From Macrostomum lignano (Eukaryota), in the NCBI GenBank assembly GCA_002269645.1, contig NIVC01001016.1, positions 62,001 through 126,000 of the forward strand: DNA of 64,000 nucleotides, written 5' to 3'. Position 1 is the first letter of the stretch; every line of letters begins with the position of its first letter. The notes beneath the pieces are model-generated. The model did not search any database. It had not been told where the DNA came from and saw nothing but the letters and a program-made list of their open reading frames with translations. Positions 9,464 through 58,860 of this stretch are shown piece by piece. The position numbers were made by a program, and so were the translations under genes.

Positions 9464-24466
<15,003 letters not shown>

Positions 24467-27796: not shown

Positions 27797-29152
27797 TTAA
27801 AAAAGCATAACAATAAAACTAGCTGCTACAATCAGAGAGCAGCCAAGAACAAAGAAGGTCATCATCAGAACAGTTTGATTTGACTGACTTTGTTCGCCAC
27901 CGAATTTAGACAACATGCAAGGCACGGCATGCAGAAAGATGGTGAATAGAAAAGCTCCCGCATTCAAGGACAAAACAGATGCCCTTATCAACAAAAGAAA
28001 GTCTGGCCACCGTTTGGATGGAGCGATTCCCGACATCGCCAGCCCAACCGCGAGGCCCAACGGTTCAGCCATGGATAAGGCTAATGCTCCGGAAACTACC
28101 GCTGTTTTTCCAGAACAGCAGGAACGCGATGCCTCCACGGTGACGGTGCAGTAAGTGGTCACAAGCAGCAGTCCAGCGCTTGCAGCGATGACCGCCTCGT
28201 GCATCGGCAGCAATAGCAAATGGCCGCCGAGCTTGGCGGGGGAAACTTCCCAACTGGAACCGAGGCGCCAGCCCGAGAGAGCGGCATGAACGCACAGGCT
28301 GAAGCAGAGGGCGTTGGTCAGGAAGTTGTGACGGTGGACAGCTGTGCGATTCCTTCGAATAGTTCTCTGTACAAGTTGACCTCGATTTCCATGGCCCTCT
28401 GGAACGGCTGAATTCGCTGGCGCCACGTCGGCACCTTGCTGCTGATTTAACTGGACCTCGTCAAGAAGCTCTTCCAAATCGGAATTGGAACTTCTACTGT
28501 CGCTGTTGTTGGTGCCGTACTGCCCGACTCCTTGAAAGCTGGCGGTTGGTGAGGTCGTCCCTGGCGGATGTACATCCTGCTGGCCGCTTTCTGCACAGTC
28601 ACCACCAGCATTGTCGGCTGAGACTGCAGCTTCCGCAGCTGCTGTCACAATCGGCCGCCGCTCCACCTCGGACCCATCAGCGACCCAGTCGTCGTCGCGG
28701 AGAAGGTGACTCCGACTGCTGGCGGAAATCCCCGAGCCGCTGGAGCCCAGGTTGAACGCGGCCAGAGCTTCGCTGCCAAGCTCCGGCTCCGGCTCCAGAG
28801 TACCGCCCCGCAGCGCCAGCTGGTCGAAGCTGAACAGCGCAAAGAATCCGCACAGCAGCAGGAAGCTCGAGACGGAGAAGTCGCCCAGCACCACCTGCAG
28901 ATGAGTTTTTCTCTGTCGCAGAGCTTCCTCAAATTCGGCACTGCCAGCCGCAAACAGTTCGAGCAGGCTGGCTGAGCAGAGAGCGCCAGCCGACATGCCG
29001 CAGGCGGCGACAAGCAGCGGACGTCGCAGCTGGAACTGCCGGTCGCTGAACCAGCGAATTGGTAGAAAGTAGGCAGCGAGAAGTTGAACAGCAGCGGATG
29101 CTGGAATGAGGAGCAGCTTCAGCCCCAGCTGCTGCCCGAAAAGCGTCATCAA
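27797..29152 (-). CDS. ZIP (SLC39) metal-transporter-like membrane protein, intronless, ~450 aa
   Basis: About 8 hydrophobic segments arranged 3+5 around a long cytoplasmic loop. TM1-2 GMSAGALCSASLLELF, TM4 LCVHAALSGWRLG, TM5 MHEAVIA, TM6 SMAEPLGLAVG, TM7 AGAFLFTIFLH. Confidence 0.75.
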   Translation of the reverse strand: MMTLFGQQLGLKLLLIPASAAVQLLAAYFLPIRWFSDRQFQLRRPLLVAACGMSAGALCSASLLELFAAGSAEFEEALRQRKTHLQVVLGDFSVSSFLLLCGFFALFSFDQLALRGGTLEPEPELGSEALAAFNLGSSGSGISASSRSHLLRDDDWVADGSEVERRPIVTAAAEAAVSADNAGGDCAESGQQDVHPPGTTSPTASFQGVGQYGTNNSDSRSSNSDLEELLDEVQLNQQQGADVAPANSAVPEGHGNRGQLVQRTIRRNRTAVHRHNFLTNALCFSLCVHAALSGWRLGSSWEVSPAKLGGHLLLLPMHEAVIAASAGLLLVTTYCTVTVEASRSCCSGKTAVVSGALALSMAEPLGLAVGLAMSGIAPSKRWPDFLLLIRASVLSLNAGAFLFTIFLHAVPCMLSKFGGEQSQSNQTVLMMTFFVLGCSLIVAASFIVMLF

Positions 29153-31177: not shown

Positions 31178-33519
31178 TCATAGCCGCAGCAGCATCTCCA
31201 GCTGTTTGAAGCTGTAGAAAAATCCGTCAGAAATGTTTCTGGGAGCGTTGGACAGCCAGCTGACGCCGGTGGCTCTGTTGGGAATGTCCAGCGCAGCGGG
31301 ATAATTGTAGTACCGTCCGAATGGGCCAGCGCAATGGCAGCAGGTGTGCCAGTGTGGCAGAAAACTGGTGGCGCACCTGTTGTCGAAGGCGAGTCCACAT
31401 CGACTGGTTCCTCGATCTCTGGTCATTAATGGCGTGTTGGTTGGCGCCAAGCAGGAGGCTACAGCTGTGCTCTCGGAGTTCAGCGCCAAAACCTGGATAG
31501 TATACCTTGTTGACTCGTCAAGTATGCGAAAGTCTTTGTACCTGGCGTAGATGTAGACGTCGTTCCAATAGAGCAGGTCGATTCTCATCAGGCTATTAGT
31601 GAGGTTTCTAGTGGTACGATGCAGCCATTCCATGCCTGGGGTGCGGTCACCAGTGTATGGGTGTGATCAGTGTGGGTGTGGTCAGTGTGGGTGTGGTCAG
31701 TGTGGGTGTGGTCAGTGTGGGTGTGATCAGTGCAAGTTGATCAGTGCGAGTTGATCAGTGTGGGTGGGTGTGATCAGTGTGGGTGTGATCAGTGTGAGTG
31801 GGTGTGATCAGTGTGGGTGTGGTCAGTGTGGGTGTGAAGTGTGATCAGTGCAAGTTGATCAGTACGAGTTGATCAGTGTGGGTGGGTGTGATCAGTGTGG
31901 GTGTGATCAGTGTGGGTGTGACCAGTGCAGGTGTGATAAGTGTGAGTGTGATCAGTGTGAGTGTGATCAGTGTGGGTGTGATCAGTGTGGGTGTGACCAG
32001 TGCAGGTGTGATCAGTGTGAGTGTGATCAGTGTGGGTGTGATCAGAGTGATAGGTGTGATCAGAGTGATAGGTGTGATCAGTGTGGGTGTGTTCAGTGTG
32101 GGTGGGATTAGTGTGGGTGTGATCAGTGTGGGTGTGATCAGTGTGAGTGTGATCAGTGCTCACCAACAAAATAATCGGCATGGTAGGCCCCAAAACCGGT
32201 TTTGAAGTCGGCCCAGAGACGATTAAAGCTGATAGCGCTGGAGACTCTCAAGGTGACCGTTTCGTAGCACTGCCCGCCAGTTGTGCAGTAAAAGTCCTGA
32301 AGTAAAAGAAATTGAGAGCAATTTTTTAATGAGTAGTCATGCTGGCGCCCCTTGGTGCTGGCGCCCCTTGGTGCTGGCGCCCCTTGGTGCTGGCGCCCCG
32401 TGGTGCTGGCGCCCCTTAGTGCTGGTGCCCCTTGGTGCTGGCGCCACTTGGTGCTGGCGCCCTTTGGTGCTGGCGCCCATTGGTGCTGGCGCCCCTTGGT
32501 GCTGGTGCCCCTTGGTGCTGGCGCCCCTTGGTGTTGGCGCCCCTTGGTGTTGGCGCCCCTTGGTGCTGGTGCCCCTTGGTGCTGGCGCCACTTGGTGCTG
32601 GCGCCCTTTGGTGCTGGCGCCCATTGGTGCTGGCGCCCCTTGGTGCTGGTGCCCCTTGGTGCTGGCGCCCCTTGGTGTTGGCGCCCCTTGGTGCTGGCGC
32701 CCCTTGGTGCTGGCGCCCCTTGGTGTTGGCGCCCCTTGGTGTTGGCGCCCCTTGGTGCTGGCGCCCCTTGGTGTTGGCGCCCCTTGGTGCTGGCGCCCCT
32801 TGGTGCTGGCGCCCCTTGGTGTTGGCGCCCCTTGGTGCTGGCGCCCCTTGGTGCTGGAGTCCTTAAGATGCACAACTCAATAAAAATGATGGCTAAGCCC
32901 CCTGGTTTGCACCACCACGAATGACTCAATCAAATAACGTCATGATCTTATGGTGCTCAAAGAGCATCGAGTACCTGAGATTTCCAACTCGATCACAAAT
33001 CTACAAACTCACAAAAGTGTTCTCAGCCGAGAAATTAGCTGTCGGCCGTTGATATCATCGGCACAGCGGGGCGTCGGTGAGCAGGGAGCAGCCGGTTGAG
33101 TTGAGCACAACTTCGCTGCACCGCGGATGCCATGAGCAGAGGCACAGGCAGCCAGCCAGAGTTGGAGTGCCCGGCACCTCCAGCAGCCAGGCCTTGAAGA
33201 TCTTCGCCGAATTATCCGGAATGTACAGTCGCTTGTGAGTGACATTTTGAGTGGATAGAACGTCTGAAAAATTGATGTACTTGTGTTGTCATGCCGGAAC
33301 ACATAATTTAGAGACAACTTGGTTGAGATTCACGTCGAGCATATTATTACGAGTCGTATTAGTACGCGTATCACAGAAAGGTCACAGAACCATCAATCAA
33401 TCAACCAGCCCGTAAAGCGATCCAAAGTTTTTGACGTCCAACAACAACGTCGCTAGAAAACGGGTACCTGTTAAAATGCAGCAACACTTAGCTGAAATAT
33501 TACGCCAAGTTAAGCGCAT
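31178..33519 (-). CDS. Secreted PAN/apple-like + fibrinogen-related domain (FReD) gene; exons 33519-33468, 33263-33013, 32296-32164, 31635-31178; in-frame TGA at 33057-33055 (possible pseudogene or nonsense allele)
   Basis: FReD motifs SFNRLWADFKTGFG, DYFVG|MEWLHR.T, MRIDL..W, YARYKDFRI.DESTRY, TRDR, W...CHC and W..K..EM.LR. Exon 2 has PAN-like Cys spacing. Introns are GT-AG in phases 1,0,1. Exon 1 is the least certain. Confidence 0.72.
31645..32160. repeat. 15-bp intronic minisatellite (GATCAGTGTGGGTGT)
   Basis: Visible array in the last FReD intron. Confidence 0.92.
32340..32855. repeat. 16-bp intronic minisatellite (GGCGCCCCTTGGTGCT)
   Basis: Visible array in FReD intron 2. Confidence 0.94.
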
Positions 33520-34539
33520 CAGTGGGGCGTCCGATTGTTGATCTCTTTAAGAGCTTCAGTTCATAAACGAATGACGTCATTTCACGGGTTTCAGAACTAG
33601 AGGCCTGTCAAATGTATGCATTATCCAGGTTGGAGCTCGCAGTTCCGATTGTACTAAATCAGGAATCATAAAACTCGATCTGTCCCTCTCCCCAGTGAAA
33701 AAAATGATATGGATTCCATGTGGATTTTTCATATGAAATCCATATGTGCATTTGTCTCCGTCCATCCATGTGGAATCAAGATATGGATTCCACATGGAAG
33801 ATCCATATGGAAGTAATTATGTATTTCACATAGAATCCACATTGTCATTGAGTAAGCAGCCATTATACTGGTTGCCATAATAAATTGTTGCATCCTAAAT
33901 CTCAAAATAATACCAGATCTCAAAATTTCATACAAACCCCAGATCTCAATACCATATAAAAGAAACTGAAACACAGATAAAACAATAGCTATAGCCAAAA
34001 ATATTTCTGCACAAAAATTCAAAATTCAATATTCAAAAACGATGTAAGGTGTATTTATGTACAGTAGTGAGTCACTGGCACACAAAGAATAAACACACTG
34101 ATGTAAATATTGATATCTTTAGAGTTGCACTGTGCATATGATATAATATATAATTTGAAATTGACATTGTCAATAGCATTAATTAATTAACAATATTATA
34201 ATGCATCAGAATTAGAACAGTCAGAAACATGCTGCTGCCAATTGCCAGAATGCTGCTTCTTCAGGTCAGGTGAGCAACCTTAGAAAAGAAAGGGGTTAAA
34301 TTACAGAATTTTATAACAGATTGATGACAGATTTTGTAATAGATTTTGATGACAGAAAAAAATCAGTTTATAACTAAAACTTACCATTGCTTCACAAAAG
34401 GTAGCATTCGAGATATTAAATTCAAATTCCAAGTAGCTTTGCAAGCTTCTTCAAATGCAAGACCAAGGTGACATCCAAGTTTGAGGATGGGCCATGTAAT
34501 GTTAGGCTGAAATGAAATAGAAAAATAATTGTTGCCAAT

Positions 34540-35460
34540 ACTACTAAGCAACGGCAGATGGCGCGATTTTGGAGGTGAGGTGGGTGTCAACCCTCCTCGC
34601 CTCTCATTGGCTGGCGCCCCGATCACTAGGTGATCGATACCCGTATCGATATCGGCGCTCGGCGCGCGCGCGCCGCAGGCGCGTGGCGCCAAGCGCCGTC
34701 CAGCCGCAGGCGACCCTCCCCAGCCACCGGCGACCCTCCCCAGCCGCACCTACCGATATGTATGCCCACCCTACCGATATGTACCCCGATATGTACACCC
34801 TCCCGAGCCGCAGGCGCACCCTCCCGAGCCGTAGGCGCCCATGCCGCAGACGCCCATGCCGCAGACGCCCATGCCGCAGGCACCCCGAGTGTACACTCTA
34901 CCGAGCCGCAGGCACCCCGAGTGTACACTCTACCGAGCCGCAGGCACCCCGAGTGTACACTCTACCGATATGTACACTCTACCACTCTCCCGATATGTAG
35001 TCAACGATATTAGGCTAGTGAAAACTACTTATAGTAGGTGAAATTGAGTATATTTACATAAAAATGTAGATAAAACATATTGGTAGGTGAATAATGACGC
35101 ATATTGCATATTAAAATGTACATATTGGAGCATATGAGCAGCAAAAACACACAATGTAGGTGTATGGGCAGAAATAGACAAAGCAGGTACTGTAGGCGCT
35201 ACATAGGTGGAAATACACACAGCAGGTTTACAAAGTGTACTTTCGATACATATCGGATTAATGTATAAAGCAGGTTTACAAGGCATGCATAAGGTGTAGT
35301 TGTATAATACAGGCACGCATGTATAATCAGATTATAGGCAAACGCCCAGGTGCAACAGACGCGTAAATAATGTCGCACCGACTAAAGAGTAAATATTGTC
35401 TAACCCGCAGGTGCATAAAAATTTTAAACAAAAGCGGTTCGGGGAAATCCCAAAAGGGGG
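34540..35460 (+). repeat. Left terminal inverted repeat (~920 bp)
   Basis: Reverse complement of 43090-44028. The two differ in internal VNTR copy number and a few substitutions near the inner edge. Confidence 0.93.
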
Positions 35461-35817
35461 GTTCACGGCCTAATGACCCGATATACTTTCAACACAATTA
35501 AACCCACAAGTGGGCTAGAAAAATGGACGTATTTCGATTGCGCTATCAGTACGCTAATCAGCGCAGCAAGTTCATGTCAGGAGTTCTACTCCAAGAGGCG
35601 GACCGCTGGGCCACAAACCGCCCCGAGGGAATAGGTGTCAAATGGGAGTTTTAACACTTGAGGGGATCCCGCTCAATGTACAGTGGAGGCGCCAAATGAG
35701 TAAGGACCCCTAAGTACAGTGCGGGCGTAAAACCATTTTCATCCCCACGAGTCAAGGGATCCCAAGTGGGCACATAGGGGAATCCCAGGCGTGCAAAGAC
35801 AGATCCTTATCTTTCAC

Positions 35818-38800
35818 TCACTCCCGAAAGCCATACGGGCGGCTAGCGGCCCCATACACTCTCTTAGTCATTACGCGCTGGAAAGTCTTGTCCATCTCGA
35901 GGGTCCTTATTGTACAGCTGGCCTTATCGCGCCTGAACTGGGCCTGGGGCAGGCGGACAGAGCCCCCGTGGCGCAGAATTTCCTGCAGCTCGTCCTCGCG
36001 CTCGGAAATCTCGGGGGTGACTCTGATGCCCTTGCACTTGAGCACCGAGTACAGCGACCTGTCGGGCTTCTCCACCACGTACCGGTAGAGCTTGGGGCCT
36101 CCCGTGGTGAACTGTACCATGCGGCAGCCAGCAGGTACCTCGTCAGTCCACTGCCCCAAACTCGAACCGCCCGGAGGCTCGTACTCGCCCGGTGAGCAGC
36201 GGTATACAACCCTGGGAGGAGGAGGAGAATAAAGTGTTAAGGGGAGAAAGAGAGACAGAGACAGTTGAAAAAATTACTCACGAATCAGTATCGGCGTAAA
36301 TGACTCGGGTTCCTAGGCCCTCCAGAGCCTCGTAGAGTCGCAGCCGGGCGTGGGAGGTGGTGAAAACGCCAATAGGCACATTAGCGTACTTGAACGCCCG
36401 CTCGCCAGCACCGCCAAATCGGGGCTTGTACTCGAGCATCATGAAGCTCTCCCCAATTGGCTCGCACGACTTGACCTTGATCGAGGGGTCGGTCAGGCGC
36501 TGCAGCCACGCCTCGTAGCTGTCCACAATCTCTGTGGAGGTCAGGTCGTCGCGCTGGCAGAACTTGCCCCAGAGCCTGCAGGGGAAAAATAAATTTTTGT
36601 ATATCTGGCTACTGTAAGTAGAAAAACATGGTCCCCACTGCAAGTAGAAAAACTTACGAGTTTAGAAAAATCTTGGCAACAAAGCGCAAGCCAGGATTCT
36701 CCTCCACCTTTTCCAGCCGGACGCCTTCGCGCTCAAAAAAGCTGGCCATGTAGGCAGCCTTGGCGTCCTCAGCCATCCCCGGCGAACCGCTAGACTCTGC
36801 TTTGAGCTTCAAAAAAGTGTTTACATAATCTGCAAACAGGCCCGTGCGAGTCTCGGTCCAATAGGCCAGGGCATGAACTGACTGCAGCTTGTAACCCAAC
36901 TGCAGGGCCTTGTGGAGCTCTGGGGTCGACCACGTGCCGCGGAGCATTCTCTCAGCGTCAGTGTGTGTACACTCGCTGCTGCACTGGGTCTCCATGCAGA
37001 CGCGGCAGAGGCCGAAAACCAGCTTCTTGTTAATCTTGGCGGGCAGTAGCGGGGTGTGGAGATTGGTTGGCGGTAGAATCGACACCTCGGCGATGCCAAA
37101 ATACCGGGCCAGCTGCAGCTCATCCAGTAGATGAGGCTCGGGGTGGTGTACCGGGTGCCCGACAGGGTACTTGTCAAACTTGTTGACAGTCGGGTAGAGC
37201 GACACCTAGGGGATAAGGATAAGATAAACTCAAACGCATGTCAACTGTGTGTGTACAAGTGTACAAACTTACCACATCCCGATAGCGCAGCTCTACAGTC
37301 TCGGTGGCCTCGGCGTGCGGGACAAAAGCCTCGGTACGGCCGCCAAACAGGGCATCCTCCAGGCGAATAGGCTGCTGGACTGGCGCTCCCTCGTCCTGAT
37401 AGTCGTGCTCCCACAGAACACGCACATTGTATGCAGTGGAGAGCAACCGGGTGAAGCGCTCAGTCTCCTCATAAATCGCCCGCATTGGCTGGTTCTTGAG
37501 CGGGTGCAGCACGTCGCCGTTGGGGAAGCACTTGGGACAGCCATGGAAGAAGCAGCCATGAAACTGCAGCACTGTCCTGGTCTCTGGGTCGAAGCCGTCG
37601 ACCTTACGACCCATGGCGAAAGCCTCACCGCCCGAGTCCGCTGTCCGCAACCGGCCGCCAAACTCGGTTGCATTCAAATGTGCCAGCCAGCACCGCGCCT
37701 TGTGCGACTGTACATCGGACCGGCGGGAAATCACCCCAAGAGTGTTGGGCTCCATAAACTTGGTGGTGAATACCGACATGGCCAAGCCCGCAATGGTGTT
37801 GGATTGAACAAATGCGTCCAGTCCGCAAATGTCCTTAATCAGGCGGGCATATTTCAGGCAGCCTTCCCGCAAAATTAACGTGTCCTGCAGGCAATAGTCC
37901 AGGTACTCCTTATTAAAATTAAACACCTGTCCCTCCTGCTTGGCCAGCCAGTCTGCGATGGAGTCATGCTGCTTATTCTTCTTTCCTCCATACATATCAA
38001 TTGAGCAGTAGGGACCGACGTACCCCCAATTTTGAGGCTGGTTAAACACGTGCGGGAAATCTCCTTTGGTCAGTTGGGTGCCCAAACCAAGCGCCTTTGG
38101 GAATTGCGCCAGACCAATAGGGATGAAATTGAGGCTGTCCTTGAAGGTGATCTTGTCGCACTTCATGTACATTAGGCGGCTGTTCTGGAAGATCACCTGC
38201 GGCTTCTTCTTGGCCAGTCCGTTGAGTAGGGCGCCGAGCAGGAGGAATGCGTCATACGCAGAGCCATTGTGCGCAATAGCAATTGCCCCCTGCTTGAACA
38301 CACTAGTCAGCCAGCAGTAAAATGCATCGATAGAGTGCGGCCCGACAGATACAAACTCTCGCATCCCACAGGCACAGTCATTGTGCGAGACACAGCTCGT
38401 GAAATCCAGTGCCAAATCGCGTCCCGCAATGCAATTGGCTGAGCTGTGTAGTCCCCCGCACACGCTGCAGCGGGGCCTGGGGAAGAGTTTGGGACACGCC
38501 TCGCAGGAGGTGGCAGCCGTAACCAAGTGTACCCGGTGCTGCTTGCCAGAGTCCACGTACGTCTCGAAATCATAGTAAACATACGGGGCGCTAGACTCTT
38601 TGGCTTTGGGCGGGGTGACAAAGCACTCGTGGGTGGCAGTTTCGTCGTACTGCTTGCAGACTGGGCACTTGGCATAACCACACTGATGCTCAGGGGGCTG
38701 GCCTACTTTTAGTTCTTCTAGATAGCCACACGTGCCGCAAACGTGGACCGAATCACAGCGCGATCTGCCGCCTTATTCTTGCGCTTGTGATTTTCTAGGC

Positions 38801-40870
38801 ACTGAGCATTATAGCAATTTAGCCCGCAATCCTGGCATCTTACATATGCGCGGTTTGCCTTACAGTTGGAGCCCGGAGTCTTGCATGTACTGCAGGCGTC
38901 AGCGCACTTGTGCTCGGCGTTGGCGCAGTCGTAGGCCATCTCGCACTTGGCGCAGTAGTGATCAGAGCCGAAAAACGCAGGCAGCTTGGTGACCACATTA
39001 AAGTGCTGCTCGACCAGGTGCAGGTGCAGAATCTCGGTGCCAGGCAGGTTGAAGATGCACCTGTTGGCCTCCTCTGCCCTGTACACTCGTACACCAAAAT
39101 CGCGCCCCGGATGCAGCCGGTTCAGGGCACGGATCGCTTCGGGCAGTGCATCCACCCCGAAAGGACCAGCCTGCGAGACGGTTTGAAGAGTCTGTGTGGA
39201 GGGTAAAATATTTCTTTTAGTATTCCCTGATACTGTGTAAAAAATCTTATCAGAAAATATATCTTTTAGTATTCCACGATACTGTGTAAAAATTCTTATC
39301 AGAAAATATATCTTTTAGTATTCCACGACTGTGTAAAAATTCTTATCAGAAAAATACTAGAAACTTACCGTGTAGAGGCCAGCTTCGATTTGTAGCTCAG
39401 CCACCAGCTTAGTCTGCGTGGGCGAATTGGCCTTGATTGTGTGCCACACCCGCTTGGTGATGGACTTGGCCACGAATTGCAGGTAGGCGCAGGCCACGAC
39501 CAGAGCGCGCAGCAGGCATCTCTTGTCCGAGTTGGTGATGCGGACATAGTGCTTGGAGAAGGCGTGCCGCTCTTCTAGATGCTTGTTCTCGAGAGCACAT
39601 CCACCTCGAGGTACCCAGGCTTTAGCAGACGGATAGAAAAGTTGCTCGACAGTACGCTGCGTCTGACTGCACAATCTTGTCAATGTGCTTAAACAACAAT
39701 TCAGCCGTCATGCGGGCTGCACGCACCGGGGGAGTGTGGGCCGCTTTGAGCATATTGTCGCTCTCGAATTTCGCGGCCATAAAGTCATCACCAGCCAAAT
39801 CTTGCTTGAAAACTTCGAGCATGTCAGCAAACACCTCCCGCAAATCTTCGGTGTTGGTAATATGCACCACATACTCGACACCCTTTGCCCTAAACTTGGG
39901 CAGGTCACGCTGATTATCCAGCCGGCCGTAAAACCTGCATGGGGGAATGGGGGAGTGTGAGTCAGCTAGGGTCTGTGTGGGAAATGGGGGGCTGGATAAC
40001 TCACCCGGTCCGGTAACAGATTCCGGCTGTGTTGGCGGGACAAACGCGTCTGAAAAAACACAAGGAGATAAAAAACCAGAAGAATCTGTCATTTTCCTGG
40101 CCCCAGCGTGTTTCCCCGCCCTAGCCCCAGCAATTTCTTAACAGAGTTTACTCTGCTGTCCCCGCAGCAACTCTCTGCAATTTCTTATCTGCACCCCCGC
40201 TGCAGCCTGTCGCAGCAGTCTTTGTTTACTCACCCCTGCAACTCTCTGTCGCAGCAATTTGCACCTAGCTGCAGCCTGTCTGGGTAGCGCCCCTGCCAAT
40301 TTCTTATCAGTCTGTCCCCGCGCTACACAGTCCCAGCAACTCTCTGCCCCACCTGGCTGTAACTTGTCTAGCCTGCCCCAACGATTCTGCAGCAATTTCT
40401 TATCTGCCGCAGCACCCTAGCAACTGTCTGTTTTTGCAGCAATTTCTTATCAGCACACCCCTCCCTGTCTAGACAACCCCCCCACCCCAGTCTTTGTTTA
40501 CTCACCCCTGCAACTCTCTGTCGCAGCAATTTGCACCCCAGCTGCAGCCTGTCTGGACAACACCCCCCTAGCAGCAATTTCTTATCAGCACACACCCGGC
40601 TGAAACTTGTCTAGCCCTCCCCTGCAACTCTCTGTTACAGACCCTGCCGCAGCACCCCACCCTAGCAACTCCAGTCTAGACCCCTGCAGCTGTCGCAGCA
40701 GTCTTTGTTGTTTACTCTGCGGTCCCACAGACCCTGCAGCTGCTGCTGCTGCTCAGCCCCTACCCCCACCCTAGCAACTACAGTCTAGACAGAAATTAAT
40801 TAAAACTTACCATAAAGACGTTGCCTCTTGTCAGCCAGAAAGCAGTTGCTGCGGCGCTGCGTTTAGCCAT
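35818..40870 (-). CDS. polB: Protein-primed family-B DNA polymerase (Polinton/adintovirus type), spliced; well-supported exons 39934-39369, 39191-37273, 37205-36658, 36575-36282, 36211-35818; putative first exon 40870-40811 and a small exon 40049-40005; apparent frameshifts near 39655 and 38760
   Basis: ExoI YYDFET, ExoII AHNGSAYD, FKDSLNFIPIGLAQFPKA, KGDFPH, ExoIII YCLQD, TIAG, FGGRTE, motif A DV|VSLYP, motif B KIFLNS|LWGKF, motif C YADTDS|VVY, GPKLY, KCKGI and KRVY...S.PYGF. Introns are GT-AG and restore the motifs in frame. Confidence 0.93.
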
Positions 40871-40940
40871 TTTGCAAACAGAGAGCGTGAGAGAGCGGAG
40901 AGAGAAGGATTTATCTCTCTACCCTGGCTCTGGGGGTCTG

Positions 40941-41062
40941 TATATATACTAAAAAATCTGCTCAGCTCGCCTGTTATTGGATAAATCGCCAAAAACCAAC
41001 CAAAATCATCAAAAATCACCCCAAAATCATCACCCACCCCACCCTCCACCGGGGGTATATAA
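40941..41062. promoter_or_regulatory. Divergent promoter with two TATA boxes (TATATATA 40941-40948 for polB; TATATAA 41056-41062 for the PC4-like gene)
   Basis: TATA motifs lie about 70 nt upstream of the minus-strand ATG (40870) and about 50 nt upstream of the plus-strand ATG (41112). Confidence 0.6.
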
Positions 41063-41111
41063 GGCGCTGCACGGCTGTCAGAGAGCTCTCTGCTGCTGCT
41101 GCTGCTAAATC

Positions 41112-41645
41112 ATGTCTTCTATCTCTCTATACGAAAACTTTGTGGCGCGGAAGCCCACATTTGAAACTGAACACAACTTGATTGAAATTCGGCGTCTCTA
41201 CACCAACGAGGCCGGAGTGTGGAAGGACGGCTTCCCTGCAATCTACTTGGCCGAGCCAGAGTGGAAGAAGCTCGAAGCTGCGCGCCCTGACCTGGAGGCT
41301 GCTGCCCGCCTTCACGTGAACAAGCGGGTCCTGTTGGGCAATTTCAAGGCAGTTGAAGCTTCGCGAGGGAGGATCCGTTTGCTGCGCAATTGGCTCAATC
41401 AGGACCCAAAGTTTAATTGGCGCTACACGATCGAATTCACGCCTGAACTGTGGCGCCGGATGTTTGCCGCCCGTTTGGACAAGCTCTTCAAGCCGGCACC
41501 TGAGGCACCCCCTCCAGCCAAGCGAGTCAAGACAGACACGCCTCCGGTAGCCGGGACTGAGGTGGATGTTCTTCAGCTCATGGGTCTCAAACCCTACCAA
41601 TCTCCACCCTGGGAAAATCTGTTTAACGAGGGTTGGGACTGCTAG
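41112..41645 (+). CDS. Tandem PC4-like (putative ssDNA-binding) protein with C-terminal NLS, 177 aa
   Basis: LIEIRRLYTNEAGVWKDGFPAIYLAEPEWKKL resembles the PC4 core ([32 protein letters not shown]). A second degenerate copy is IRLLRNWLNQDPKFNWRYTIEFTPELWRRM. PPAKRVKTD resembles the c-Myc-type NLS. Family call is by eye. Confidence 0.68.
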   Translation: MSSISLYENFVARKPTFETEHNLIEIRRLYTNEAGVWKDGFPAIYLAEPEWKKLEAARPDLEAAARLHVNKRVLLGNFKAVEASRGRIRLLRNWLNQDPKFNWRYTIEFTPELWRRMFAARLDKLFKPAPEAPPPAKRVKTDTPPVAGTEVDVLQLMGLKPYQSPPWENLFNEGWDC

Positions 41646-41760
41646 TTTCCTATTGGTTCGCACCGCCTCACTCGATCCGTCTATATAATTAGTGTTTCCC
41701 CCTCTCCAGAGAGTCAAACCCTATCTCAGCTCTAATACTTTACTCTCTGTTGATTCTAGC

Positions 41761-42774
41761 ATGTCCCGCGAGCTCTATCCAACCTCTGGGATAATAATCG
41801 CCCGACTGAAGAGTTAACCAGCCTCGACGGGGATATCCCTGAACACATAGTTCCCCTAGGCACTGAAAACAACGGAAGTGATAATTGGGAGGCTGATCAA
41901 TATCTAGCTTGGGCTATGTCCTATGATAGCGACACCGAGTCTGAAGTTTTTGACCTCCCGCTGCTGGCTATCGGCGGGGTTGTGAACGGTGCCCCTGCTG
42001 CTACTGCCTCCGATTTGACTACCGCCTCAGCCGCCCTCTTTGACGTCTCTGTTGAGGAGCTGACCACAACCGGCCCTGCCTCTGCTGCGCCCGTCTCTGC
42101 TGCTGCCGCCTCTACTACGCCCGTCTCTGCTGCTGCTTCAACTACCTCCCACCGGGCCTCAATATCATCAGCCGCTACGCTCCTTCTCTTCGACGACGAG
42201 GACGAGGATATGTCTGAGGAGATCGCCGTGGTTCGTGAGCGCTTTCCTCGCATTGTGGCCTCATTTTTCCGCGGGGACATTGACTGGCTGAGGTCTCGGC
42301 ATCCTGGCGGGCTGCCCTCCCAAGCTACCTTTGTCAGAGCCTTTAATCGGGTTCTTGATACTTTGGTTGCGAGGGGTGCCGGCCTACGGGAGGTGTTGGA
42401 GGCTGAGACTCTGCACCAGGACTGGTTGATGGGGCGCAATTCGTATGCCCCCGACTCTGAGGCGTACCTGGCCGGTCCGGGAGCGCGGCCAACTGCGTGG
42501 GATGAGCCCGTCGCATGGCCCTCCAACTGGGAGGAGCACCTTTCGTTGGTGCGCTATACAGCGTCTCTACGTCTGTGGCGGCTGGAGGACGATTTAGATT
42601 TGGTAAGATATTACATTATATACACAACTTATCTAATCATATACCTTGCATATATTCTATCTACATTGACTGTTATAATTTCCACATTGCCAGTCATCCG
42701 ACTACTGCTTCGAGAGCGTGGAGGAAGAGGCCGCGTACGAGACAGCCCTGAGGGAGCGTATGGAGATTGACTGA
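41761..42774 (+). CDS. Unknown acidic protein of the Polinton-like element; exons 41761(or 41916)-42602 and 42694-42774; probable 1-nt frameshift near 41780
   Basis: The 41916 frame stays open upstream to about 41780. ATG 41761 follows a TATA-like TATATAA near 41681. Intron 42603-42693 is GT-AG, phase 0, and gives the C-terminus SSDYCFESVEEEAAYETALRERMEID*. Confidence 0.6.
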
Positions 42775-43089
42775 TAAGGGTATTTCTCTTTGTACGCGGT
42801 TTGGGGAACCCAACACTGTACACTGGGTAGGTTAGAATGTGCGCTAGCTGGGGGCCTCTATGTGTGTATACACGGGGGTTAAAAGACCAATTCTGATAGC
42901 TCGCTCCTAGGGAGGAAATTGGCAGAGGGGCCGGCCCAAAAAACTGAAATGGGCTGGCCCCGGGCTCGAGTCCACCCACCTAAAATATGGAGGTCATTAC
43001 AACCTAATGACCCGAAATACTTTCAACGCAATTGTACCTATAAGAGGGTTAGGGCGGCGGCGGCGGTGGCGAAAACGGGCGGCTAAAAC

Positions 43090-44028
43090 CTCCCTTTTGG
43101 GATTTCCCCGAACCGCTTTTGGTTAAAATTTATGCACCTGCGGGTTAGACAATATTTACTCTTTAGTCGGTGCGACATTATTTACGCGTCTGTTGCACCT
43201 GGGCGTTTGCCTATAATCTGATTATACATGCGTGCCTGTATTATACAACTACACCTTATGCATGCCTTGTAAACCTGCTTTATACATTAATCCGATATGT
43301 ATCGAAAGTACACTTTGTAAACCTGCTGTGTGTATTTCCACCTATGTAGCGCCTACAGTACCTGCTTTGTCTATTTCTGCCCATACACCTACATTGTGTG
43401 TTTTTGCTGCTCATATGCTCCAATATGTACATTTTAATATGCAATATGCGTCATTATTCACCTACCAATATGTTTTATCTACATTTTTATGTAAATATAC
43501 TCAATTTCACCTACTATAAGTAGTTTTCACTAGCCTAATATCGTTGACTACATATCGGGAGAGTGGTAGAGTGTACATATCGGTAGAGTGTACACTCGGG
43601 GTGCCTGCGGCTCGGTAGAGTGTACACTCGGGGTGCCTGCGGCTCGGTAGAGTGTACACTCGGGTGCCTGCGGCATGGGCGTCTGCGGCATGGGCGTCTG
43701 CGGCATGGGCGTCTGCGGCATGGGCGCCTACGGCTCGGGAGGGTGCGCCTGCGGCTCGGGAGGGTGTACATATCGGGGTACATATCGGTAGGGTGGGCAT
43801 ACATATCGGTAGGTGCGCCTGCGGCTGGGGAGGGTCGCCGGTGGCTGGGGAGGGTCGCCTGCGGCTGGACGGCGCTTGGCGCCACGCGCCTGCGGCGCGC
43901 GCGCGCCGAGCGCCGATATCGATACGGGTATCGATCACCTAGTGATCGGGGCGCCAGCCAATGAGAGGCGAGGAGGGTTGACACCCACCTCACCTCCAAA
44001 ATCGCGCCATCTGCCGTTGCTTAGTAGT
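43090..44028 (-). repeat. Right terminal inverted repeat (~940 bp)
   Basis: Reverse complement of 34540-35460. Confidence 0.93.
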
Positions 44029-44566
44029 GCCAATTAAGATTAATAAATAATATTGATATAATTCATAAAACTAATTTAATGATAAATACTTATAAAATAA
44101 AATAAAGTTTATTTTTAAATTAACTAGGCCTAAGTCCTAGGTTTATTTTTTAAGCGCAAAATGTGCATATGCACCCTAAATTTTAAAATTGCACCTTGAA
44201 AATTGAAATTAAAAAGTTGATGATACAGTTTAGGTGTGATCTCATTACCTATTTTTCTGTTGAAGCCTATTTTGCACTGCCTTTATATAAGAAAAAAGAG
44301 AAACTGCATTCTAAGCCTTAAAATCATAAAACCCTAAAAGTGAGCATAGGGTATGATTTTGCACCTTGTCTCTAGCAAAAAAGAAAACCCTACCTAAGTC
44401 AATCAATAAAATAAAATTAATAAAATTAAAATAATAAGTACAAAGAATTAATATATGTTTCTATAAATTTAATTTTTTATTTTAAAATTGATTTTAGACT
44501 ATAAAGTATTTAGGCAAAGCAATGCATGTTTTTTTTATATTTGCTGGCCTATTATGATTAAAAGGG

Positions 44567-44815: not shown

Positions 44816-47664
44816 GCTCAGGGGAGTTAGTGGAATGGGTAGCAATGCCTCTCGCCAGTTGTATGCCTATGTCGCTTAAAGTGTGCCAGGGTACACACAA
44901 TCCCTTGCCTCTAATAAAAAAATAGTATGATTAAACATTAGGCTTAATCTTAAAAGCTATGCCCTATGGCTATTAAATTCTAGACTTGGCCTAAATCAGA
45001 TCAAATTTACAATAATCAGTATTTATTTATAATAGCAACCTTAGGGATCTGCTAGGCTAGCTATGCCAAGAACAGGTTGCAAATGTAATTGCAAAGAATT
45101 ATTTATAATGATTAATAATATTGTTTTTAAAAATGCAGCAAGTCCAAAAGATGCTAACAGGCTTTTATGAAGAAAATCATAAATGAATAGATTTTTAACA
45201 GATTAACTAGATTGACTAGTCACAATTCACAAAGTCAAGCTAGTCTTAACCTTAATTAAAATAGAAGGACCTAAATTGATAGTTATACTTATAGGCCTAG
45301 CTTAAAATAGGCCTAATAAGCATACATATAAATAGATAGGACTAATAGGTAGGACAAAGAGGAAATTATGAACTTCTAAATGCCTATTAAGTTTAAAAAA
45401 TGAGTAGCCAATCTATGGACATGGCCATGGGATTCCTAGAAATAGGATAAGCCTAAATAAATTTATCATGGATGGATTTTACCAAAAGTATTAGGCCTAT
45501 CTATGATGAAATACTGATTTATCTAATTTCTAATCCCATGGAGGCCATGGTCTTATAAGTTATTGCCTATAGGCTACGTCTACTAAAATTTTTAAGGTGC
45601 TTAAATAGCCATAAACAAGGCAATTTATCTTTCAAGGCCTTGAACCAAGACATTGACGAATATAAAATAAAATAAATTTAATTTTAAAAAGCACGAAACG
45701 TTTTTTATTGTTCACTTCCATTTTGTCTATTTTAACAAACAGTGTCTTATTTTCTGATTATACTTTAGCTTTAAGATATTAATTTTTACTTAAAAGCATA
45801 TAAATATAATAATTAATTATAGTAATTTTATAAAAACGTCTGAATGTGGTGTATCACAGTTTTTTATCGAAGTGGATTCCATGTTGAATCAATATACGCT
45901 TATTTCTCATGAATTCCTTGTAAAATCCACATCAACATTAGGACAGTAAAAATTAAAAAATTATGCATAAAAAATACTTTGCATACCATTATGTCATCTT
46001 TAAGTCATTAATTTGCAAAAATTAAGGAAACATTTAAATTCCACATGGCCACGTGGAACCCACGTGGAATCCATGAATCATTTTTCACTGGGTCAGAATC
46101 CTCTCTATCCAGCCCTCGGCTCTGTTAAAACTTTGCGACAGCAATTCGACTCGCTGAAGGTTTCTCCTCTCCTCTAGTCTACCTCTTGCATCTCCTGCAC
46201 TAAATCGATAACACCTCATGTTGGTTCGCAGGTTTACTCTCCTTTTGTTTGACAATGGGAGACCAGCAAGAAAGCAGTCAAGTAGTTACATTCAAACTGC
46301 ATTACCATATTTTCCTAGGTAGCTCCTGTTCTATGGTAAAACTTAATCGAACTATAGTTTTTTTTAAATCTACTCAACAAGTCAATCATGTGTTTCTTAA
46401 CAAACCGTTTGTTAGGGTCGCTAGTCTCGCTTCGAACGTCTCAAAACTTCCGTTACACGAGGCAACCCTATCGAATGAGATGGCAACCCTATCGAATGAT
46501 ATGGCAACCCTATCGAATGAGATGGCGCTAAAATGAGTGCCTGTGGCGCTAAAATGAGTGTCTGCGGCACTTAAACGAGTGCTGACAACACCGATTCTCT
46601 CAAAATCATGTACATTTAGGAATTTAGTCATGTACATGTACATGACATGTTTAGAATTCTTGGCTTTGTCCCCTCACCATAAAATTCATGGTGACGAACC
46701 TGGAGCCTCCTGAAAGACACCTCCAATGAGAAAGGAAAGTTGCATTTTTCAGTTGCAACAAATGTGTTTAGCTTTAATTGTAGCCACTAAACAGCCTGCA
46801 GTGGTAAAATTATTTTACCGTTTATTTGTTTAAAAAATAGAATTTCAATTCGTGTCCTTGTGAAGAAATATATCAGCGAATTTGTAACAAAAGTTAAAAA
46901 TCCTCTCTAGAAAGTAAACACAAATTTGCTTATCATACTACTAACTACAATTATCGCAGTGCAGACCGCATCAGTCCAGCTATGCAGCTACGCAAAAAAT
47001 ATTTGTTTCAAAACATATCGCTAAATCGGAGCACTTTAATTAACAAATTTCTAAATTCCTGATATTTTCTTTTACGACAGGCTAAAACTGAAATTTGAAG
47101 AGAATTTAATTTAAAAATGTTCTACAGACACATATTTCAATAGTACTAACGGACAATGAGTAGTCTGTGAGGGATTTGAAAGAAGTTTTTTAAAACAAAG
47201 ATATGGAAAAACATTTATAATAAACAAAGCTCTAGACTGTCTATTGAGGTGTGAAAAATTCAGTAGTACAGTGGGGATTTTAAAGGAAAAACAGCAAAAA
47301 CAAAGCAACCAGAAGGAATGAGCAGCCGAGGGTCAATGGTGTGCATACGCAGAGAATTTTCAGTCAAAATTTAGAAAATTTTCTGCGAAAAACTGGATGA
47401 AAAAATACTTTTTTACACAGTCAGCCAAATCACAGTCAGTCAAACAAAATGGATCGGCGCAGAAAAACAAAATGACCTTGATTTGTATTCTTGATTAAAG
47501 TGTCAAATAATTTGCGTATTGCTAAATTTGAAAACTCCTACAACCAATTTTTATATGCGCGTAAGAAACATAAACATCTGTGTAATTTTCTCTTCAAAAA
47601 AGTAGAATGACAATTCCAAAGTGAAGCTGACTTCTTCAAAATGAAATTATGGAGGAGAGACACC

Positions 47665-48000
47665 GACAATGTACTCCCGCCTATCAGCCAGCCAACACCC
47701 ACCCCACAATGTACTCCCGCCTATCAGCCAGCCAACACCCACCCCACAATGTACTCCCGCCTATCAGCCAGCCAACACCCACCCCACAATGTACTCCCGC
47801 CTATCAGCCAGCCAACACCCACCCCACAATGTACTCCCGACTATCAGCCAGCCAACACCCACCCCAAAATGTACTCCCGCCTATCAGCCAGCCAACACCC
47901 ACCCCACAATGTACTCACGCCTATCAGCCAGCCCCCACCCCACCCTACAATGTACTCCCGCCTATCCGAAAGCCACCACCTCCAAAATGCACTCCCGCCT
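47665..48000. repeat. 40-bp minisatellite (ATGTACTCCCGCCTATCAGCCAGCCAACACCCACCCCACA)
   Basis: About 8 visible copies. Confidence 0.92.
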
Positions 48001-49018: not shown

Positions 49019-51047
49019 GAATAAAAAACCTAAAAAAACAGGAGAAAAGTGCAAACCCGAAGGACCTAATCTATAGCTTAATTTTGTTAACAAAGGTGTT
49101 TAATAACTCCGGCCCAACCAGACAAAACTGGCAATGTTCGGGACCCGGGAACAATCAATTTATAAGCCGGTCTAAGCATCGAGCAAAGGAATTCAGGCCA
49201 CGGGAAGCGGGCGTGGAGGGGTTAAGAGAGAGTGAGGAGCAGGCGGGGATTATAGAGAGGCGGCAAGCTGCTCAGCTTCTCCCAGAGGCGAGCCCCCCGC
49301 CCTCAGCACCGCTGCACTGCTCGAGTCAGTCGGTCTCTAGTCTAGGGGAAGTCCAGAGCGCTGGCCTCCTCCCGGCCTGTCCCTGTGGGGCCGGCAGCCG
49401 TGGGTGGATTAGCGACTGCAGTCACCAATGGCTTTGAACTCTGCCGCAAGCTGGATCAGTGGGAAAGTACCCGCTGTACTTTTGCGAGCTTGTTTAGGAA
49501 TAATAGTGCGAACAAACTAGTCGATACCAACAAGATGTTGCAGTGTTCTTTAGTGTCCATTTTTGTAGGAGTCCTTTTCTAGAAGTACTTTTTTACAGCT
49601 CCTAGTGAGTCCTGTTGAGCTCCTATTCAGTCCATATTTACAGCTCCTAGTGAGTCCTGTTGAGCTCCTATTCAGTCCATATTTACAGCTCCTAGTGAGT
49701 CCATATTTACAGCTCCTAGTGAGTCCATATTTACAGCTCCTAGTGAGTCCATATTTACAGCTCCTAGTGAGTCCATATTTACAGCTCCTAGTGAGTCCAT
49801 ATTTACAGCTCCTAGTGAGTCCATATTTACAGCTCCTAGTGAGTCCATATTTACAGCTCCTAGTGAGTCCATATTTACAGCTCCTAGTGAGTCCATATTT
49901 ACAGCTCCTAGTGAGTCCATATTTACAGCTCCTAGTGAGTCCATATTTACAGCTCCTAGTGAGTCCTGTCGAGCTCCCATTGAGTCCATATTTCCACTCA
50001 TCTGAATGAATACGAGACCCAACGGCTCACCTGACCGCTTCTCGTCTCTGCACCGTGGCAATAAAAGTCGGCTTGGAGATGCTCACAGCCGAGTCCAGCT
50101 TCTCAGCTACCTGGTTGCAGACTTTCTCAAACACGTTGAAATCTGAGAACAGTACAGAGACGGTGATTGACAGGGTCAGCGACTGCTGGTTGTGCCGGGT
50201 GACCTCTCGGTTGCTCTTGACACAGTTCTCCTGCGGTATGGGGAAGGCAGCTGTTGCAAGTTACAAGAAAGGAGAGCCGCTAAGAGATTAATCCACACAC
50301 AATCCAGCTACTCCACACTCCAGCTAATCCACACACACTCCAGCTACTCCACACTCCAGCTAATCCACACTCCAGCTAATCCACACTCTATCTAATCCAC
50401 ACACTCCAGCTAATCCAAAATCCAGCTAATCCACACTCCAGCTAATCCACGCTCCAGCTAATCCACACTCTAGCTAATCCACACTCCAGCTAATCCACAC
50501 TCCAGCTGATCCACACTCGCTAATCCACACTCCAGCTAATCCACACTCCAGCTACTCCACACTCTAGCTAATCCACACTCCAGCTACTCCACAACACTCC
50601 AGCTACTCCACACTCCAGCTAATCCACACTCCAGCTAATCCACACTCTAGCTAATCCACACTCCAGCTACTCCACAACACTCCAGCTCACTCCAGCTAAT
50701 CCACACTCCAGTTAATCTCCACTCCAGCTACTCCACACTCCAGCTAATCCACACTCCAGCTACTCCACACTCCATCTAATCCACACGCCACACTCCAGCT
50801 CCAATCCAAAATCTAGTTAATCACAAATCCAGCTAGCCCGCACCTTGATATGCGAGTTGCCCAGCAGTTGCAGCAGGTAGTTGTACCGCTTGATGGCGCT
50901 GGCGTTGGCCTCCTCGACAGTCTCCTTGGTGGAGCGAATGACAAAAACCACGGAGCACTGGTCAGGCACGACTGGCACCTCGCCAACTCCCAGAACTTCA
51001 ACTGTTTTGCGCTTCTGCTGCTGCTGCTGCTGCTGGATGTCCTCCAT
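48649..51047 (-). CDS. IRAK1BP1: SIMPL-domain (DUF541) protein, IRAK1-binding protein 1 homolog, 225 aa; exons 51047-50844, 50230-50031, 48922-48649
   Basis: VEVLGVGEVPVVPDQCSVVFVIRSTKE..EEA..S..KR.NY, FSDF..FEKVCN..AEKLDSAVSISKP.F, RREASLLAVANAKSKA.DIA...N.TL.KP..I.DE and final RVRVQFEL all track IRAK1BP1. Introns are in phase (0,2); total 678 nt. Confidence 0.85.
48948..49018. repeat. (GATA)n microsatellite
   Basis: Direct. Confidence 0.97.
49595..49990. repeat. 24-bp intronic minisatellite (TCCATATTTACAGCTCCTAGTGAG)
   Basis: Visible array in IRAK1BP1 intron 2. Confidence 0.94.
50295..50805. repeat. 16-bp intronic minisatellite (CCACACTCCAGCTAAT)
   Basis: Visible array in IRAK1BP1 intron 1. 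Confidence 0.92.
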
Positions 51048-58064: not shown

Positions 58065-58144
58065 GTAAGGAAATTCAATGCACTTTGATCTTGGGTTCAG
58101 CATCGTTGATATCTACGCTCGTACCATACTAAAAATAAGTTGTC

Positions 58145-58860
58145 TCCGCAGAATGTTCCGGAGCTTAAACATGACCCACAGAATGTTCCGGAGCTTGAAC
58201 ATGATACACAGAATGTTCCGGAGCTTGAGCATGACATAGAATATTACGGAGCTTGAACTTGACATATAATGTTCCGGAGCTTGAACATGACATAGAATAT
58301 TCCGGAGCTTGAACATGACATAGAATGTTCCGGAGCTTGAACATGACATAGAATGTTCCGGAGCTTGAACATGACATAGAATGTTCAGGAGTTTGAACAT
58401 GACATAGAATTTTCAGGAGTTTGAACATGACCCACAGAATGTTCAGGAGTTTGAACATGACATAGAATTTTCAGGAGCTTGAACATGACCCACAGAATGT
58501 TCAGGAGCTTGAACATGACATAGAATGTTCCGGAGCTTGAACATGACATAGAATGTTCAGGAGTTTGAACATGACATAGAATGTTCAGGAGTTTGAACAT
58601 GACATAGAATTTTCAGGAGCTTGAACATGACCTACAGAATGTTCAGGAGCTTGAACATGACCCACAGAATGTTCAGGAGCTTGAACATGACCCACAGAAT
58701 GTTCAGGAGCTTGAACATGACCCACAGAATGTTCAGGAGCTTGAACATGACATAGAATGTTCCGGAGCTTGAACATGACCCACAGAATGTTCAGGAGCTT
58801 GAACATGACCCACAGAATGTTCAGGAGCTTGAACATGACCCACAGAATGTTCAGGAGCTA
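58145..58860. repeat. 28/30-bp intronic minisatellite (ACAGAATGTTCAGGAGCTTGAACATGACCC)
   Basis: Visible array after exon 2. Confidence 0.94.

Follow-up and report, generated by a model that had tools for sequence, protein, structure and literature searches.

Adenovirus and phi29, both of which replicate by protein-primed strand displacement, carry their own single-stranded DNA (ssDNA)-binding protein (SSB). For Polintons, no assignment of an SSB was found in the accessible portions of the best-matching literature. Polintons span 13-25 kb and carry an integrase and virion genes (PMC10748475, PMC6431247), with terminal inverted repeats (TIRs) of 100-1,500 bp and target-site duplications of 5-8 bp (PMC10748475), and intact vertebrate Mavericks are intronless and end in 5'-(AG)3 or 5'-(AGT)2 (PMC8097293). 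Capsid-less linear replicons derived from Polintons are represented by transpovirons and cytoplasmic linear plasmids (PMC11161782). PC4-like ORFs in Polinton-type viruses have already been noticed under the label MOSUB, which occurs once in PMC8502044, on a genome map (Supplementary Figure S2) after penton, hexon and MAEL; the main text of that paper, as far as accessible, mentions neither MOSUB nor a coactivator. Discussion of such an ORF as an SSB or as a two-repeat protein was absent from the accessible portions of the best-matching literature, and likewise from those of PMC11161782, PMC8097293, PMC11071296, PMC10748475, PMC11131425 and bioRxiv 10.64898/2026.10.13.758929 (in PMC11662393, 'PC4' is a cluster label).

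The window (the whole 64-kb stretch of Macrostomum lignano DNA that was analysed) contained an element of 9,489 bp with inverted repeats of about 920 bp and three genes, encoding a family B DNA polymerase that is protein-primed (pPolB), a PC4-like protein and a product termed ORF3. Its features were as follows:

34534..34539, + strand: left copy of the target-site duplication GCCAAT, 6 bp
34540..35463, + strand: left TIR, beginning 5'-ACTACT
35469..35518, + strand: 50-bp direct repeat, inside the left TIR
35818..40871, - strand: pPolB gene, with six predicted introns and frame breaks
40915..40948, - strand: TATA box and AGAGAG motif of the pPolB gene
41056..41085, + strand: TATA box and AGAGAG initiator-like motif of the PC4-like gene
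41112..41645, + strand: PC4-like ORF, with a two-repeat domain (residues 1-128), a Pro-rich linker and an acidic/aromatic disordered tail
41115..41315, + strand: repeat 1 of the PC4-like ORF (residues 2-68), near cellular PC4/Sub1
41316..41495, + strand: repeat 2 of the PC4-like ORF (residues 69-128), diverged and strongly basic, with four strands and a helix
Residues 137-140 of the PC4-like ORF, + strand: KRVK motif within the Pro-rich linker
41682..41713, + strand: TATA box and AGAGAG motif upstream of ORF3
41760..42774, + strand: ORF3, with a 91-nt intron (42603-42693) and a first in-frame ATG at 41916, the start being uncertain
43003..43052, + strand: second copy of the 50-bp direct repeat, inside the right TIR, in the same orientation
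43087..44028, - strand: right TIR, its outer end (44023-44028) likewise 5'-ACTACT
44029..44034, + strand: right copy of the target-site duplication GCCAAT, 6 bp

From the predictions and comparisons set out below, the PC4-like protein is probably a single-chain, two-repeat protein serving as the SSB of a helper-dependent, replication-only 9.5-kb Polinton derivative. The right and left TIRs were 97.5% identical over 944 columns (2 mismatches, 5 gaps), with the small indels located in base runs, and enclosed 7.6 kb. The two copies of the 50-bp direct repeat (84% identity, E 1e-9) are a possible cis-element or rearrangement scar. Further inverted repeat pairs, with identities of 78-93%, lay outside the element (30074-30255/44594-44777 and 33691-33726/46057-46092) and are probably other host repeats.

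In common with Polintons and Mavericks (adintoviruses), the element encodes a protein-primed family B polymerase, 27-36% identical to theirs, and has TIRs (about 920-940 bp) and a 6-bp duplication within the Polinton ranges. However, it measures 9.5 kb rather than 13-25 kb, and no integrase, capsid, ATPase or protease was recognised; whereas vertebrate Mavericks are intronless and end in (AG)3 or (AGT)2, six polymerase introns and one ORF3 intron are predicted here and the ends are 5'-ACTACT. A triplet repeat like ACTACT would suit jump-back protein priming. Neither the three genes nor 34/76 stop-to-stop ORFs in alternative frames gave a Pfam match to integrase, capsid, ATPase or protease, and the free space inside the TIRs (only about 350 and 310 bp) leaves no room for a capsid, packaging ATPase or protease. 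The replication module had been predicted to be self-contained, which can be true of DNA synthesis at best: despite the 6-bp duplication no integrase was recognised, and the polymerase of this copy is broken as assembled. In its working, the element resembles a Polinton replicon while departing from one in integrase, capsid and introns. With transpovirons and cytoplasmic linear plasmids it shares a capsid-less, Polinton-derived constitution, but it is instead integrated in an animal nuclear genome with a target-site duplication, and its TATA promoters and introns mean that expression must be nuclear.

The polymerase gene matched Pfam DNA_pol_B_2 (E 2.8e-18), with PF03175 found in three exon blocks. 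It was present not as an intact gene with an ORF in one piece but as a spliced gene with frame breaks, and its six predicted introns, all GT-AG, were:

40050..40810, - strand: intron 1, 761 nt, internally repetitive, the least certain of the six
39935..40004, - strand: intron 2, 70 nt, with the same gap in models of a 63-64% identical subfamily
39192..39368, - strand: intron 3, 177 nt, GC 27%, with an alternative in-frame acceptor at 39171
37206..37272, - strand: intron 4, 67 nt, interrupting motif A (D-V / V-S-L-Y-P)
36576..36657, - strand: intron 5, 82 nt, interrupting motif B (N-S / L-W-G)
36212..36281, - strand: intron 6, 70 nt, within the final codon of motif C (D-T-D-S)

Catalytic motifs A, B and C are intact after splicing. 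Alignment blocks of four non-flatworm polymerases ended at the boundaries of introns 4-6, mostly resuming at the next residue, and intron-free relatives were contiguous across the predicted boundaries (for example, P0060 at 1063/1064 and 1159/1160). When six introns were placed at random, they hit three 15-nt motif windows in 22 of 2,000,000 trials and three 61-nt windows in 886 of 2,000,000, both tests being post hoc. Since gene models of the 63-64% identical subfamily break at the same intron places (gene-model boundaries), we infer that the introns are older than the split from that subfamily. In PolB genes, inteins and homing introns insert at sites reminiscent of those of the introns in motifs A, B and C. 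Among Polinton-like elements, those of dinoflagellates are known to carry introns in the form of introner insertions (PMC11957031); the pPolB introns showed no similarity to each other or to the rest of the 64-kb window, and therefore no introner origin is evident. Introns 1 and 3 contained internal repeats (40100-40800 and 39205-39353, respectively; for example, 40216-40310 versus 40488-40588, 88%). The N-terminal part of pPolB has the position and Cys/His motifs that we would expect of terminal-protein and OTU protease domains. Domains of both kinds have been described for Polinton-type polymerases (PMC11161782). A Vsr-like insert in the polymerase was weakly supported (relative P0039, E 0.008, below the cut-off), with no match in a second profile check.

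Compared with sister models, the polymerase of this copy contained at least four frame breaks (near 38780, two at 39620-39660, and near 39930), at which places the sister copies read through, and exon 1 was out of phase with exon 2; judged by its sequence as assembled, no active polymerase can come from this copy. Decay and assembly error are equally likely causes of the breaks, because the small TIR differences sit in base runs. Relatives of the polymerase (876-2,500 aa only) numbered 247 at E <= 1e-10, of which the best 120 were listed; the best 26 models were 54-100% identical, 25 of them named Macrostomum lignano, and the remaining relatives among those listed were animal and metagenomic Polinton-type polymerases at 27-36% identity. 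Fourteen of the 26 top models included the PC4-like ORF (13 antisense on the polymerase strand, one sense), several of the 14 being 98-100% identical and possibly representing one locus in different assemblies. In P0037, the sense case, polymerase sequence 61-70% identical is read antisense and leads into a PC4-like ORF, placed head-to-head with it and 42% identical to the present one, and the predicted head-to-head linkage with pPolB is conserved across two element subfamilies. The survey used proteins rather than DNA, and the gene content of the other copies rests on gene models. In P0015, P0016, P0017 and P0034 the polymerase was fused to host domains (reprolysin, zinc-finger or synapsin), suggesting that copies have inserted in several separate places. 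By title and abstract, the literature on Macrostomum with Maverick or Polinton describes no such element.

These data bear on whether the element arose by deletion from an ordinary Polinton and spread passively, its PC4-like ORF and polymerase being dispensable passengers. Such an origin would be in line with the four or more frame breaks, with the gene models of other copies of the ORF being partial or frameshifted (P0003, P0005 and P0007) and with the lack of a recognised integrase. It is nevertheless decidedly improbable, given TIRs with 2 substitutions in 924 bp and indels in base runs, a pattern that fits a recent insertion together with errors in assembly, polymerase motifs A, B and C that are intact once spliced, two subfamilies (42% identical) that both retain the PC4-like ORF, its key residues and its position, and intron positions common to the 63-64% subfamily at the level of gene-model boundaries.

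As originally noted, the PC4-like ORF ran from ATG to stop without interruption (177 aa; GC3 = 0.64), and all peptides quoted for it, as well as PPAKRVKTD, were present. A HMMER scan of 1.84 billion representatives yielded 7 matches at E <= 0.001, namely 3 flatworm-type near-copies, 3 distant relatives (120-165 aa, 30-38% identity) and 1 repetitive protein, and one extra relative, P0012, was gained by profile search. The reading frame of residues 1-128 was backed by four relatives not labelled as flatworm (30-40% identity), which sit on contigs of 930-1,655 bp. P0009 (992 aa, E 7e-6), a chance match in a repetitive protein, was excluded from every alignment, and P0003-P0007, being partial or frameshifted near-copies, from alignments A2 and A3. 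The UniRef names attached to flatworm relatives (replication endonuclease, DNMT1-RFD, BSD, HTH CENPB, TEX11) were discarded, as Pfam detected none of these domains. In bacterial and archaeal genomes no relative turned up (0 of 70 candidate stretches).

Pfam PF02229 scored 11.7 bits against the ORF (E 0.19), short of the gathering cut-off of 25 bits, the best relative being P0008 with 21.1 bits. A profile built from five sequences found PC4 chains of the PDB with E values from 3.7e-7 to 5.7e-6, in the first half only (1pcf, E 4.6e-6; human PC4, E 5e-6; MoSub1, E 0.45). The AlphaFold2 model (pLDDT 75.5, pTM 0.62; input alignment of 5 sequences) consisted of two sheet-plus-helix units in one chain, with a disordered tail from about residue 138; repeat 1 was predicted to contain strands 3-7, 10-13, 23-31 and 37-47 and helix 48-67, and repeat 2 strands 71-74, 79-84, 87-92 and 107-109 and helices 111-125. 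In Foldseek the first six ranks were all PC4 (prob 1.0, E 0.004-0.03, none reaching E 0.001), and in VIA-align 10 of the top 11 rows were PC4, Sub1, Pur, Whirly, MRP or two DUF proteins of similar span. Repeat 1 (residues 2-68) aligned with PC4 at Z 6.2 and rmsd 1.8 (66 aligned, 23% identity), and residues 69-130 (repeat 2) with YdbC at Z 3.6. Over residues 1-128 the best match was the Pur-alpha repeats (Z 8.8, rmsd 3.9, 117 aligned), the only chain at Z >= 8 among 48,161, a value that barely exceeds the best Z typically reached by chance (7-8); DUF155 followed at Z 6.9, MRP1/2 at Z 6.5, and T5 PC4, MoSub1 and Whirly at Z 5.5-5.6. The PC4 fold originally proposed is therefore supported by the profile search against the PDB, by Foldseek and by VIA-align, and prediction and fold search did not give a fold unrelated to PC4/whirly.

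The intramolecular pseudo-dimer that had been proposed is borne out by the model, as a single-chain two-repeat structure, and not by the sequence. The internal similarity claimed for the two segments was at chance level in both shuffle tests: column shuffles equalled or beat the profile-profile score of the two halves (10.2) in 68 of 200 cases, and shuffles of the sequence did so for the single-sequence local score (31) in 90 of 2000. Only a shared P-x-x-W helix start could be aligned between the halves, and the W of IRLLRNW in repeat 2 was lost in relatives. Repeat 2 was recognisable through the predicted structure only, and the duplication is thus visible in that prediction and absent from the sequence signal. 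Superposition of the full-length model on 3k44 implies that helices would be swapped between the repeats; a homodimer prediction run without an alignment (score 0.00) speaks neither way. Type I PC4-like domains are intramolecular dimers (PMC7549692), and on the model the protein is of that type. Human PC4, MoSub1 and the phage T5 homologue, the last titled in the PDB as 'implicated in recombination-dependent DNA replication', share with it a repeat that superposes on the PC4 C-terminal domain, but PC4 is a one-repeat homodimer (type II), whereas the present chain has two repeats and lacks the N-terminal regulatory region. With Pur-alpha repeats I-II, Whirly and MRP1/2 (type I) it shares the single-chain two-repeat topology (PMC7549692), but identity is 6-11% (Pur-alpha, MRP1/2) and no Pfam match to those families was obtained. 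The chain seems to derive from a PC4/Sub1-type repeat that was duplicated independently, and the protein appears from the model to work like a PC4-type ssDNA binder, lying outside PF02229 by score and architecture.

The PC4 fold also occurs in transcription cofactors and RNA binders (PMC7549692), which counts against reading the fold as that of an SSB. An RNA binder could protect, splice or export element transcripts, or shield them from small-RNA silencing; the whole domain has its best matches in Pur-alpha and MRP1/2 (Z 8.8 and 6.5, respectively), which bind RNA (PMC7549692), and the element polymerase depends on splicing. Against this, the sequence signal points to PC4 only, the 6-11% identity to those proteins compares with 23% to PC4 at rmsd 1.8, and relatives are present in adintoviruses that are free of introns, which makes RNA binding a very improbable primary role.

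Residues were compared with those of PC4 in the numbering of PMC4350104. The printed alignment paired E25, R27, Y30, K38, G40 and W51 of repeat 1 with D84, R86, W89, K97, G99 and W110, respectively, and F17, at a position outside that alignment, is the likely equivalent of F77. In PC4, ssDNA binding requires F77 and W89, W89Y retains affinity, and backbone contacts are made by R86, R100 and K101 (PMC4350104). The equivalents of R86, W89 (as Y), G99 and W110 were invariant in 5 of 5 aligned relatives; R100 and K101 are replaced by F41 and P42, and in repeat 2 the W89 position carries no conserved aromatic residue. Repeat 1 is acidic overall (pI 5.3), repeat 2 basic (pI 11.5) and the tail acidic (pI 4.4), the whole domain having a pI of 9.9, and the two faces of the domain are therefore unequal in charge. 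A basic domain plus an acidic disordered tail is an SSB-like layout. The KRVK motif, which in our view resembles a classical monopartite import signal, was found at the same position in 5 of 6 other flatworm-type models, and K-R-x-K there in none of the four distant relatives (P0008, P0010, P0011 and P0012).

The divergent arrangement with pPolB that had been noted was confirmed: pPolB, on the - strand, lies head-to-head with the PC4-like ORF. At the bidirectional TATA promoter of about 120 bp that had been proposed, back-to-back TATA boxes at 40948 (-) and 41056 (+) are 108 bp apart, with 241 bp between the candidate start codons (40871 and 41112). The pattern TATATA, 18-24 bases, AGAGAG, defined after the sites were known, matched 3 times in 64 kb against 0.12 expected. 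Three look-alike TATA promoters in one element would suit a PC4/Sub1-type transcription cofactor that binds melted promoter DNA and boosts Pol II at these sites, as would the closeness of repeat 1 to PC4/Sub1, a general Pol II cofactor, and the nuclear-import-like motif of the flatworm copies. The top BFVD match of the model was MOSUB of a Branchiostoma lancelet adintovirus (UniProt A0A5H3CIS2; E 5.2e-4, TM 0.48, rmsd 6.3, 149 columns, 15% identity), which likewise belongs to an element with pPolB and inverted terminal repeats; it sits, however, in a complete virus (integrase, FtsK, penton, hexon) at the far end from PolB (PMC8502044), and this non-adjacency also favours a cofactor. In the Atlas, the top clusters were hypothetical proteins of 174 and 184 aa with PF02229 on 21% and 28% of members, respectively, the 174-aa cluster being viral (score 0.86, a lead only). 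PC4 uses its N-terminal region for cofactor activity. The PC4-like protein, by contrast, has no N-terminal extension before the fold, and three relatives are bare domains of 120-155 aa. The Macrostomum host presumably has a PC4 of its own, which we likewise count against a cofactor, and the gene has been retained with the polymerase after loss of the structural genes. A role as cofactor is accordingly unlikely to be the main one, and the SSB and cofactor roles are not mutually exclusive.

ORF3 comprised an acidic/Ala-rich low-complexity N-terminal part followed by a predicted helical domain of about 130 aa, and Pfam, PDB sequences, PHROGs and NCBIfam gave no family assignment. Recognition in the Atlas was low (score 0.84), and the single-sequence model (pLDDT 62) reached a best Z of 7.1 among helical bundles and a best BFVD E of 1.5. 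In gene models P0004 and P0006 a weak donor joins the PC4-like ORF to ORF3, and the last exon of ORF3 is similar to the C-terminus that P0002, P0003 and P0005 assign to the PC4-like protein, making splicing between the two, that is, a fusion, possible; separate genes are preferred because ORF3 has its own TATA motif. An 18-codon ORF begins at 41761.

With the PC4-like protein read as an SSB, host Pol II would transcribe pPolB and the PC4-like gene from the back-to-back TATA promoters, and the host spliceosome would remove the polymerase introns, three of which split catalytic motifs. The polymerase would then start at the ACT-ACT ends, using its terminal-protein domain as primer, and copy the linear element by strand displacement, both steps being established pPolB biology. 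The PC4-like protein might coat the displaced strand, or help to open the ends, and coating would last until the inverted repeats pair and synthesis restarts. Integration with a 6-bp duplication would be carried out by an integrase acting in trans, presumably from a full-length Polinton; neither a helper of this kind nor an extrachromosomal form of the element was observed, which counts against the scheme.

More tentatively, the element may belong to a new class of replicon in animal nuclei: a Polinton satellite of three genes, lacking capsid and integrase, that amplifies itself as a linear, protein-capped episome by means of a polymerase of its own and a two-repeat SSB; this wider reading is possible rather than probable. 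If it is correct, the satellite replicon borrows its integrase, and perhaps its capsid, from a helper, the introns in all three catalytic motifs gate polymerase activity by host splicing, and a PC4-type protein is the long-missing SSB of Polinton-type replication. With a small PC4-fold candidate kept beside pPolB after the other losses, purifying a single protein would be enough to put the SSB question to the test. The reduced, intron-bearing pPolB element around it is no less surprising than the protein itself: it is a Polinton derivative, compact and present in many copies, in a flatworm amenable to laboratory work, and it shows a path by which a virus may become a nuclear satellite or plasmid. 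Introns would conceal such polymerases from ORF-based surveys, and surveys demanding several Polinton core genes would miss such an element entirely.

Two further ORFs were recognised by Pfam elsewhere in the window:

27797..29149, - strand: ZIP zinc transporter-like host ORF, single exon (PF02535, E 2.6e-11)
31178..31633, - strand: ORF with a fibrinogen C-terminal domain (PF00147, E 1.6e-10)

A satellite of about 7 kb (13730-21000) had a period of 6/12/18 bp and a GC skew near -0.8, and other minisatellites lay near 31900-32900, 47600-48000, 49700-50000 and 58100-58450.
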